DNA of 40,617 nt from positions 1 to 40,617 of the forward strand of contig JAZDDW010000027.1 of assembly GCA_043809365.1 (NCBI GenBank), given 5' to 3'. The position numbers were made by a program, and so were the translations under genes. Positions within the stretch are counted from its first letter, which is position 1. Each line of letters starts with the position of its first letter. Origin of the DNA: a bacterium. Its GTDB lineage: Bacteria; Patescibacteriota; Microgenomatia; UBA1400; UBA12108. Positions 233 through 1,003 of this stretch are shown in pieces. Under the pieces are notes generated by a model. That model did not search any database, was not told where the DNA came from, and saw nothing but the letters and a program-made list of their open reading frames with translations.

Positions 233-1003
233 ATGGTAATGCTCAACAAATTGCTGATCGGTTTGGTGATGGTTTTGGTGGAGTGTTGGGCGGGTCAGCA
301 CCAGGTATGGGCGCAGGGCACCTCAACGGGAGTAGCCAACTATGTCAAGGTCAGCGGGGAGTCACCGGATGGGAGTATTGTAATTTCTACCGAACAAGGA
401 TATGAACTGGCTAAAATAGCGTATGACCCGAGTATCCATGGAGTCGTAGTGGACAATCCGGCTGTATCTTTCCAGAACGAAAACATCGAGGGACTGGTGG
501 CGGTTGTGACCAACGGGAGGGCGAGAGTGAGGGTCGCTGCTATAGCGGGAGAGATCAAAGAAGGTGACTTTATTACGAGCTCAACAACCCCTGGGGTGGG
601 ACAAAAGGGAGACCAAAATGGGTTTATCCTGGGGAGAGCGATCACGGGATATAGCGGATCAGGCGAGGGCATGATTGAGGTGATGTTAAATCCAAAATAT
701 AATTCCGCAGTTTCGGGGAGCAAGGGGATCAATTTGTTTAAGGGGATCAAGTCGGCGGCTAGCTCGCCATTTTTGTCCCCCCTGACTTCGATGCGCTACC
801 TTTTGGCGGTTGTCGTGACGGCGGTCGCCTTTGGGGGAGGATTTGCTTATTTTGGCAAGTTTGGCAAGACGGGGATCGAGGCTTTGGGGAGGAACCCCTT
901 GGCTGCGAAGACCATTTATGCAGGGATTGGTGTTAATGTAATGTTAACGATTACCATAGTTGGTGGGGGACTATTTTTAGCATACTTGATATTAGTCTTG
1001 TAA
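233..1003 (+). CDS. Signal peptide + extracytoplasmic beta domain + C-terminal ATP synthase subunit c-like helical hairpin
   Basis: Two C-terminal TM helices are joined by [15 protein letters not shown], which resembles the subunit-c EAxARQPE loop. First gene of the atp operon; the stop is 3 nt before atpA. Confidence 0.7.

Follow-up and report, generated by a model that had tools for sequence, protein, structure and literature searches.

A subunit-c-like hairpin without the ion-binding carboxylate, fused to an exported beta domain, beside a second F1-type gene set in Patescibacteria

What becomes of a rotary ATPase when its ring subunit no longer carries the residue that binds the ion? Rotary ATPases are textbook ion-coupled machines, and Patescibacteria lack respiratory chains. 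The question is raised by the beginning of a 40,617-nucleotide stretch of a Microgenomatia genome (GenBank assembly GCA_043809365.1, contig JAZDDW010000027.1, positions 1 to 40,617; hereafter the window), where one open reading frame (ORF), here called gene X, encodes an exported beta domain followed by a hairpin that resembles subunit c of the F-type ATPases, and stands directly before the genes of a divergent F1 head. The window is the start of contig C27 of an assembly of 819 kb in 63 contigs that is 95.8% complete. We consider it reasonably probable that X is the membrane subunit, in the position of the ring, of a second, ion-uncoupled F-type ATPase. The parts of gene X are as follows (pLDDT, predicted local distance difference test).

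233..1003, plus strand: gene X, 256 residues, exported beta domain and hairpin of subunit-c type without carboxylate (ORF listing; 514 homologs at E ≤ 0.001; AlphaFold2 mean pLDDT 91.5)
233..313, plus strand: signal peptide or N-terminal hydrophobic helix, residues 1–27 (model helix 3–20; hydrophobic and variable in 25 aligned homologs)
320..703, plus strand: exported beta domain, residues 30–157, of the phage cement / tail-spike auto-chaperone type (structure matches)
704..778, plus strand: linker with a short helix, 168–177, and a juxtamembrane segment of high conservation, S-P-F-L-S-P-L-T-S-[LM]-R-Y (pLDDT 66–80)
779..892, plus strand: hairpin helix 1, residues 183–220, running from outside to inside (model; aligns with helix 1 of c subunits)
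887..898, plus strand: cytoplasmic loop G-R-N-P, residues 219–222, corresponding to the R-Q/N-P loop of subunit c (invariance in 120 of 120 homologs; motif in canonical patescibacterial c)
896..997, plus strand: hairpin helix 2, residues 222–255, with no acidic residue (alignment with canonical c)
935..937, plus strand: Asn235, conserved polar residue (113 of 120 homologs)
947..949, plus strand: Thr239, conserved polar residue (105 of 120 homologs)
950..952, plus strand: Ile240, at the carboxylate position (canonical Glu opposite in the hhalign alignment)

The AlphaFold2 model, built on 120 homologs, has a hydrophobic N-terminal helix, strands across residues 31–157, a linker of lower confidence and the two hairpin helices. 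Together with the ORF it confirms what an initial annotation of the locus had read from the sequence, namely a signal peptide and a beta domain of about 130 residues ahead of a C-terminal hairpin. That annotation had also placed an isoleucine 18 residues after the loop proline and no Asp or Glu in the second helix, and this is correct: Pro222 plus 18 is Ile240, and the count of acidic residues in helix 2 is zero. A conserved S-S-G-I-A start directly follows the hydrophobic region in the 25 aligned homologs. Because four basic residues (K209, K212, R220 and K226) lie in or around the loop, the positive-inside rule predicts from the sequence that the loop is cytoplasmic and hence that the N-terminal domain is outside, which is the topology of subunit c.

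Several comparisons indicate that the hairpin is almost certainly a homolog of subunit c. We assembled a reference set of 24 canonical c subunits (70–84 residues) from the window's genome and 23 other patescibacterial genomes, and aligned it by hhalign with a profile of the X hairpin (120 sequences). The alignment reached a probability of 95.2% with a pairwise E of 2.5e-8 over 47 ungapped columns and set the canonical Glu opposite position 240; as controls, the reversed profile reached 0.4% and none of ten column shuffles exceeded 6.1%. When a profile of 40 hairpins was searched against 177,635 distinct PDB sequences, 14 of the 16 hits at E ≤ 10 were c subunits of ATP synthases, which took all of the first 13 places (best 2wie_A, E 1.3e-4, over almost all of the hairpin); the remainder were MscS at E ≥ 1. 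The single PDB hit of the whole-X profile was likewise a c subunit (E 0.16). The loop motif E-A-[IL]-G-R-N-P is common to X and patescibacterial c, where it reads E-A-I-G-R-N-P-E-A-x-x-K-I, and exactly 34 residues follow the loop proline both in X and in the genome's own atpE. In F-type ATPases the R-Q/N-P loop of subunit c touches gamma and epsilon and seats the stalk. Modelled alone, the hairpin has a pLDDT of 91.9, and in a comparison with 48,161 representative chains ranks 1–11 were all rotary-ATPase c subunits (Z 10.5–8.6).

Loss of the carboxylate extends across the family. At E ≤ 0.001, 514 proteins among 3429 candidates are homologs of X, and our conservation counts are taken from the best 120 of them, which are 236–295 residues long, come from Patescibacteria records and nearly all lack a name. 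One JGI record labels its homolog ATP synthase c / V-ATPase K subunit; Pfam and NCBIfam scans gave no name for the window's protein, and in the ESM Atlas the X clusters are tagged 'hypothetical protein', with no common Pfam family for 29 of 30 hits. Residues R220, N221, P222, G246, Y251, R188 and P183 are among those invariant in all 120 sequences, and the juxtamembrane residues P179, L181, L184, T185 and Y189 are conserved in at least 90%. Position 240 is mostly Ile (38), Ala (31), Val (30) or Thr (10). No homolog has Asp or Glu at positions 230–255; a Glu at position 229, near the cytoplasmic end, occurs in 6 of the 120. An ESM Atlas cluster of 167-residue proteins (126 members) aligns to residues 89–253 of X and possibly represents a short form with half of the beta domain and the hairpin.

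What, then, is encoded beside X? In the window four F1-type genes come after X on its strand, and the neighbours in this operon are 3 bases apart or overlap by at most 22 bases.

1007..2431, plus strand: alpha', divergent F1 alpha-type subunit, 474 residues (Pfam ATP-synt_ab 3.9e-64; NCBIfam atpA 359.2 bits against a cut-off of 484.45)
2410..3264, plus strand: gamma', 284 residues (Pfam ATP-synt 1.8e-20; TIGR01146 47.5 bits against a cut-off of 194.45)
3261..4652, plus strand: beta', catalytic, with Walker A and G-E-R intact, 463 residues (Pfam 2.5e-59; TIGR01039 412.5 bits against a cut-off of 462.85)
4649..4879, plus strand: epsilon', beta-sandwich only, 76 residues (Pfam ATP-synt_DE_N 1.1e-13, no ATP-synt_DE)

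All four proteins (together F1') fall below the NCBIfam equivalog cut-offs. The same genome carries a canonical operon of atpBEF(H)AGDC type on contig C2, with a, c, b, alpha, gamma, beta and epsilon; its subunit c (83 residues) matches PF00137 at 3.9e-20, and its epsilon (141 residues) has both domains. From its sequence, the F1' enzyme looks both hydrolytic and active. All 44 beta sequences compared carry Walker A and the G-E-R motif, and the S-V-S-R-V-G stretch of the window's alpha', which we take to be that of the arginine finger, is kept. Among 64 loci the epsilon' ORF has a median of 87 residues, and 61 are no longer than 108, against 139–151 for canonical epsilon, so that epsilon' lacks the C-terminal helices. 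In F-type ATPases these helices throttle hydrolysis.

The linkage of X to these genes is widely kept. We found 127 relatives of the locus and retained 80, to which all locus counts refer (loci and genomes are cited by our own handles, L and G); the names on their records are Levy-, Shapiro-, Gottesman-, Woese-, Roizman- and Collierbacteria, WWE3 and others, some of these labels being evidently wrong. A same-strand alpha'-gamma'-beta' set, mostly with epsilon', lies downstream of X in 74 of the 80. In one more (L059) the F1' set adjoins X on the other strand, and three loci stop within 600 bases of X. Between X and alpha', 55 loci have two ORFs, one the size of subunit b and one the size of delta. 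The former, b' (about 235 residues), begins with a membrane helix and contains a long coiled coil, and its profile aligns with canonical b at an hhalign probability of 88% over the C-terminal 58 columns. The latter, delta' (about 165 residues), gave a Pfam OSCP hit in all four proteins tested, three of them above the cut-off. From these loci we reconstruct the ancestral operon as X-b'-delta'-alpha'-gamma'-beta'-epsilon', which is the canonical gene order with subunit a left out and X in place of c. Occasional insertions comprise iPGM, 23S-rRNA-IVP proteins and a GIY-YIG-like ORF.

Could the likeness to subunit c instead be convergent, X being a generic two-helix anchor that stands beside F1 by synteny alone? 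The Pfam gathering score is never reached by X, helical hairpins give middling Z-scores with many folds, and a few genomes (L051, G103) show no linkage of X with F1'. Against convergence speak the 14 c subunits among 16 PDB profile hits, the wide gap between the hhalign alignment and its 11 controls, the common loop motif, the identical length of helix 2 and the place of X in the c slot, directly before b'-delta'-alpha'. Moreover, in other Patescibacteria PF00137 matched the C-termini of very large frames, and fusion proteins of 629 and about 2,570 residues with the same hairpin do reach its cut-off (24.1–28.9 bits), one of them upstream of b'-delta'-alpha'-gamma'-beta'-epsilon'. We regard convergence as very unlikely. 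The initial annotation had described the hairpin as a mimic of subunit c and had asked whether loss of the carboxylate and linkage to atpA are conserved; profile, motif, fold and operon position bear out the first, and the family counts and the 74 linked loci answer the second in the affirmative. X is also, with good probability, the membrane partner of F1'.

Whether the X system depends on the ion path of the canonical enzyme was judged from subunit a. In a survey of 121 genomes of the class, which included the window's own and the unpublished G125 and in which X and subunit a were cross-tabulated by hand, full-length X was present in 42 and one further copy was cut by a contig end; PF00119 (subunit a) was present in 66. 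Among the 42 X genomes, 28 have subunit a above the cut-off, one has a broken sub-threshold fragment only, and 13 have no match at E ≤ 0.001, several of these being 96–99% complete in 1–3 contigs. In 5 of the 13, PF00137 gives nothing at E ≤ 1 but two weak hits, both within X itself (E 0.037 and 0.24). Each of these five genomes has one strong alpha/beta pair, of X type, and a weaker third match of about 100–109 bits, and in four of them the strong pair lies within about 4 kb of X. With a, c and b of the window's genome as queries, tblastn detected no counterpart of any of the three at the 80 loci. We conclude that the X system is independent of the canonical ATPase. An 81-residue frame of G089 that matches the X profile at first looked like a canonical c and proved to be an X-type gene cut by a contig end; being an X-type gene itself, it is not independent evidence.

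These results also bear on the possibility that X still translocates ions, by way of Asn235/Thr239 or bound water and with the subunit a of the canonical operon. Both residues are polar, lie mid-membrane beside the carboxylate position and are largely conserved, and the window's genome does have atpB, as do most X genomes. This explanation is nevertheless very improbable: helix 2 is without an ionisable group in all 120 homologs, 13 X genomes have no subunit a match, tblastn with the subunit a of the window's genome found no a-like gene at the 80 loci, and X and atpB lie 181–332 kb from each other in all six cases of a shared contig. To our knowledge, every ion-translocating ring of the F, V and A types keeps a Glu or Asp. 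The complex of X and F1' is thus, with good probability, not coupled to ions.

Is the cluster perhaps a decaying, functionless duplicate of F1FO, the c-likeness of X being a remnant? We built a quick IQ-TREE phylogeny (LG+G4) of 44 beta and 45 alpha sequences, each group rooting the other, with support from the Shimodaira–Hasegawa-like approximate likelihood ratio test (SH-aLRT) only; it covers patescibacterial sequences only, with rows from the window, 33 of the 74 linked loci spanning the table, G089 and the other systems. The 33 X-operon beta' sequences form one clade (SH-aLRT 99), which is joined by those of G089 and of two 629-residue-type systems (100) and then by two beta sequences of giant-fusion systems (94, under the 95 mark). 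Five canonical beta sequences and a third beta of G005 fall outside this X-type clade, and alpha' sits in a clade apart from canonical alpha. Decay would agree with four F1' proteins under their equivalog cut-offs and with the missing a, b and delta of the window, but the 514 family members with their invariant and near-invariant residues, the intact catalytic motifs in all 44 beta sequences, matches uninterrupted by stops, and an old clade spanning many orders make it extremely unlikely. In at least five near-complete genomes, moreover, the X-type set is the sole F-type ATPase found. The beta' gene of L004, which was left out of the tree, appeared as two tblastn pieces (7466–7897 and 8011–8757), suggesting a frameshift, an insertion or an assembly error.

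The peripheral stalk divides the family. Fifteen loci and the window have X directly next to alpha' or with nothing but a small unrelated ORF in between. These stalk-less loci are monophyletic among the beta sequences (13 rows, support 98) and among the alpha sequences (14 rows, support 99), from which a single loss of b' and delta' follows. Alpha' in this clade has a median length of 475 residues against 491 elsewhere, which would fit loss of the delta-binding N-terminus. Two loci (L008 and L009) have a shortened b' (155–185 residues) and delta' (70–75 residues). One b' protein gave a weak FliH hit (E 0.0029).

What lies outside the membrane? By VIA-align, residues 30–157 of X match best the C-terminal auto-chaperone domain of phi29 gp12 (3gqh_A; Z 14.2, root-mean-square deviation 2.0 Å, 109 of 163 residues), followed by HFTV1 8qsy_JJ (Z 13.2) and a next match at Z 11.9, and the domain also resembles capsid cement or decoration proteins of HFTV1, Sf11, BB1, XM1 and Pam3. 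Foldseek returned the Pam3 cement protein 8hdt_G from the PDB (E 2.6e-5) and many predicted phage proteins from BFVD (best E 1.2e-13). Among 25 X homologs there were weak Pfam hits to XM1_gp53 (PF23982) in nine, Phage_cement_2 (PF09956) in four, Phage_cement (PF22758) in two (best E 7.7e-6) and Peptidase_G2 (PF11962) in two; the window's protein had no phage cement or Peptidase_G2 hit at E ≤ 1. The fold is thus that of the phi29 gp12 auto-chaperone (3gqh/3suc; Peptidase_G2) and of the cement proteins (Pam3 gp6, HFTV1, Sf11, XM1 gp53), whereas sequence identity is only 12–19%, and the X domain is tethered to a membrane hairpin where theirs are tethered to a fibre or capsid. In phi29 gp12, a domain of this type helps fibres trimerise. 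Without the hairpin, the X-type beta domain also occurs inside many giant frames (477 to 6,605 residues) of the same class, often on the contig of X.

Such giants are also the usual neighbours of X. A BLAST-linked cluster of 67 large ORFs (single linkage at E ≤ 1e-8, which repeats may inflate) is represented near X in 63 of the 80 loci, 58 of the ORFs lying upstream on the opposite strand. They encode 1,000 to more than 2,200 residues, often cut by the 7-kb flank, with an N-terminal signal or membrane helix, a conserved module of about 250 residues and then Gly/Thr/Ser-rich repeats. Two of five giants examined have a Peptidase_S74 tail-spike chaperone near the C-terminus, and those of L022, L027 and L063 contain the X-type beta domain 250–390 residues from the end. 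In G127 a 1,501-residue giant runs in the same direction as X, alpha', gamma', beta' and epsilon', its gene overlapping that of X by 4 bases. At the position of the relatives' giant the window has a divergent gene start that runs into the contig end.

2..124, minus strand: divergent gene start with a signal-like N-terminus, 41 residues and then the contig end, at the position of the relatives' giant (ORF listing)

In three of five giants (L007, L075 and L053) a MerR-type helix-turn-helix precedes the membrane helix (HTH_17-type, E 2.1e-14 in L007), so that these proteins carry a domain of DNA-binding type on the cytoplasmic end and more than 1,000 extracellular residues beyond the membrane helix.

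This setting, with the stalk-less clade, gives weight to the main alternative, in which X is a static oligomeric anchor or platform for surface fibres and F1' with the FliH-like b' energises secretion or assembly of the giant fibre or of a Pam-type pilus in the manner of a flagellar or type III export ATPase, without productive rotation. It agrees with a giant gene near X in most loci and, in G127, overlapping it; with a beta domain of the tail-spike auto-chaperone type; with the weak FliH hit; and with the window's own clade, whose lack of a stalk is a better fit to non-rotary use. It agrees, too, with the absence of a dedicated trans-envelope assembly machine for the pam pilus in the accessible part of a preprint on that pilus (Troman et al. 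2026, PMC13278184). On the other hand, an alpha'/beta' heterohexamer with a full gamma' and epsilon' in its centre is a rotary and not a substrate-threading layout, the invariant R-N-P loop suggests that the contact of gamma and epsilon with the ring is kept, the operon has no export-gate genes, and the giants have their own N-terminal signal or membrane anchor. We judge this alternative to be rather unlikely, though plausible through the stalk-less clade. The initial annotation had considered a further possibility, that a ring of X forms a conduit. We set this aside as unlikely, since the operon encodes gamma and epsilon, whose central stalk would cover the ring. The rest of its interpretation stands: a relative of subunit c, loss of the carboxylate, linkage to F1 genes, and a beta domain like those of phage cement proteins, Peptidase_G2 and giant Candidate Phyla Radiation (CPR) proteins, as fold, Pfam hits and the giants agree.

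Several points weigh against reading X as the ring-position subunit of a second, ion-uncoupled ATPase. As to the hairpin, the window's X has no PF00137 (ATP-synt_C, curated at 24 bits) hit at E ≤ 1, and three of 25 homologs have hits, all sub-threshold (best E 0.015). Helix 1 lacks the G-x-G-x-G-x-G packing motif; it contains F-G-G-G-F in the window, while the family consensus is bulky Phe, Leu and Tyr (columns 200–207 mostly F, L, G, F, W/L, Y and F), so the geometry of a ring may differ. For these two reasons we speak of a c-derived hairpin and not of a PF00137 member as defined. Unrelated helical hairpins begin at Z 8.6, against 10.5 at best for c subunits, and by reason of this small margin the fold alone would not settle homology. 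As to linkage, alpha' is absent downstream of X in L051 (7 kb seen) and in L054 (2.5 kb), and X and F1' are about 58 kb apart in G103, the fifth of the near-complete genomes mentioned above. As to the stalk, b' and delta' were not found in the window's genome with profiles of 34 b' and 35 delta' sequences and the single proteins of L012 at E ≤ 1; with the stalk lost in the window's clade, rotation does no work unless something else holds the head, which makes a simple rotary interpretation weaker where the window itself is concerned. The giant was not found in the window's genome with the first 400 residues of the L004 giant as query, and it may merely be unassembled there, since the contig ends 232 bases upstream of X. 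The relatives of the beta domain, which we take to be trimers, have no obvious fit to a ring. Ring formation, the binding of gamma' and epsilon' and the turning of X are steps that we infer. A four-copy complex prediction of mature X (residues 28–256) scored 0.01 against a mark of 0.42 and is evidence neither way.

If X is nevertheless a ring-position subunit, its oligomer would sit like a c-ring under gamma' and epsilon', with the contact through the R-N-P loop kept. The complex would move no protons or sodium and make no ATP. F1' would hydrolyse ATP, the turning of gamma' and epsilon' would be passed to the X oligomer, and the outer domains would act at the cell surface through motion or holding torque. 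The likeliest partner would be the tail-fibre-like giant, whose gene is usually the neighbour of X and which sometimes has the same beta domain, or else pili. We give not quite even weight to the idea that X and F1' make up an ATP-driven mechanical device at the surface. Its most specific version is doubtful: an ATP-driven extracellular crown on an ion-uncoupled c-ring, engaging giant fibres or CPR pili, which would be a new class of surface rotary motor. It is similarly speculative that such a motor would serve ultra-small episymbionts in attachment, movement or fibre handling, with related versions in the 629-residue and roughly 2,570-residue fusions.

How does this system compare with known ones? 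It shares with F-type subunit c (AtpE, PF00137) a two-helix hairpin of equal length whose N-terminus is external and whose basic R-N-P loop is internal, the motif E-A-[IL]-G-R-N-P-x-A in the loop of patescibacterial c, the operon slot, and the profile and fold matches; it differs in lacking the helix 2 carboxylate and the glycine-rich helix 1, in scoring below the Pfam threshold, in its fusion to a signal peptide and a beta domain of about 130 residues that is exported, and in having no subunit a partner. The closest known analogue appears to be the Type 2 and Type 3 'F1-like X0' ATPases of mycoplasmas (Beven et al. 2012, PMC3369863). As far as the accessible text goes, these and the gliding ATPase of Mycoplasma mobile likewise have an extra alpha/beta/gamma/epsilon-like set beside a genuine F1FO and no a, and for the F1-like X0 enzymes a non-FO membrane sector and ATP hydrolysis for a surface function are proposed, in a small-genome, host-dependent bacterium (PMC3369863). 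The X system differs from them in its phylum, in a membrane subunit that is recognisably c-derived and in the b- and delta-like genes of most relatives. The F1' proteins also score far below the cut-offs of the mycoplasma models (MSC_0618_beta 353.7 bits against 570; MSC_0619_alpha 249.5 against 520; gliding 303.6 against 850). F1-like ATPases on a non-FO membrane sector are a known kind, to which the X system would belong.

N-ATPases (TIGR03305/TIGR03324) are alike in being a divergent second F-type operon that coexists with a canonical one. They keep a and a c with a Na+ or H+ site, in the order beta-epsilon-...-a-c-b-alpha-gamma. The X operon, in contrast, has no a, no ion site and the canonical gene order, and F1' is far below the N-ATPase model cut-offs (396.3 bits against 752 and 320 against 750.5).

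We found no description in the literature of a carboxylate-less c-like fusion subunit, or of a second F-type ATPase without a, in Patescibacteria. The available sections of the pam pilus preprint (Troman et al. [quoted passage not shown] That neighbourhood is probably the same as that of X. No Pam-like operon was evident by eye in about 30 kb upstream of X in G127, which holds metal-transport and other genes, or among the window's other genes, no Pam sequences having been compared. In the portion of another preprint that could be accessed, unusual neighbourhoods of CPR beta homologs are mentioned, in the Methods only (10.64898/2026.10.01.756066), and four further papers treat CPR F-type ATPases as ordinary in the parts available (PMC8407418, PMC7143001, PMC11665869, PMC10633639), the last of them stating in its main text that the 'F-type ATP synthase' is dispensable.

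A conserved rotary ATPase that has the whole F1 head, a central and mostly also a peripheral stalk, yet lacks a and the ion site of the ring and bears a folded outer domain on each ring subunit, would be unexpected; it would be a natural system in which to test whether torque of the F type can cross a membrane. It bears on why Patescibacteria keep 'ATP synthase' genes, on the role of the 'ATP synthase components' beside the CPR pilus operon and on how episymbionts anchor or move giant surface fibres, and should interest those who work on rotary ATPases and on CPR biology. Because the X-type set is the sole F-type ATPase found in at least five near-complete genomes, metabolic reconstructions that score such genes as ATP synthase are probably wrong there.

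The hairpin also occurs in larger settings. In G009 (L114, G009:C1:161000-180000; 1400–9115, plus strand) a 2,571-residue exported protein ends in a c-type hairpin with a G-R-N-P loop and a helix 2 without an acid. Downstream follow a 521-residue protein, an ATP-binding cassette (ABC) ATPase, an FtsX-like permease, b', delta', alpha, gamma, beta and an 86-residue epsilon; the cluster has no a and no separate c, and a canonical operon lies elsewhere in G009. The arrangement is the same in G005 (L113, G005:C8:49000-68000; 9433–17202, minus strand), the exported proteins being about 2,570–2,590 residues long, and both clusters contain another large protein, a pair of ABC transporter genes of MacB/FtsX type and a short epsilon. 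G028 (L115, G028:C10, 2872–4761, plus strand) and G055 (L116, G055:C22, 1186–3075, plus strand) encode 629-residue exported proteins with the hairpin, on short contigs and among other secreted proteins; their hairpins have Asn at Pro+13 like X. Sets of b'-delta'-alpha'-gamma'-beta'-epsilon' lie on other contigs of these two genomes (L124 and L125), with a beta' of 737–764 residues. The b' of the giant-fusion and 629-residue systems aligns with the b' of the X operon at 99.5%. A third pair in G005 (L123, G005:C8:15000-25000; 4381–7472, plus strand) consists of a beta of 466 residues followed directly by an alpha of 564, with no gamma, epsilon or membrane genes beside it, and groups with canonical sequences on the tree.

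The canonical operon of the window's genome has a peculiarity of its own. Its alpha (L003, G000:C2:14000-29424; 9162–10826, minus strand) has 553 residues with an OSCP-like N-terminal extension that matches only the C-terminal part of delta/OSCP (Pfam positions 105–167, E 1.2e-6), and b and alpha have no separate delta gene between them. This alpha has the look of a naturally occurring fusion of a truncated delta with alpha, and resembles an engineered delta-alpha fusion cited in the accessible part of the bioRxiv preprint (10.64898/2026.10.01.756066).

Upstream of X and on the same strand, 22 of the 80 loci encode a protein of about 313 residues with a Fic-type H-P-[FW]-x-D-G-N-G-R motif (for example in the 11619–12611 region of L007); its recurrence beside the operon may be only synteny among close relatives. 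Further along the window, outside the F1' set, two more gene pairs at 6766–8107 (minus strand) and 9896–11178 (plus strand) are presumably AbiEi/AbiEii-type pairs of an antitoxin and a nucleotidyltransferase toxin.

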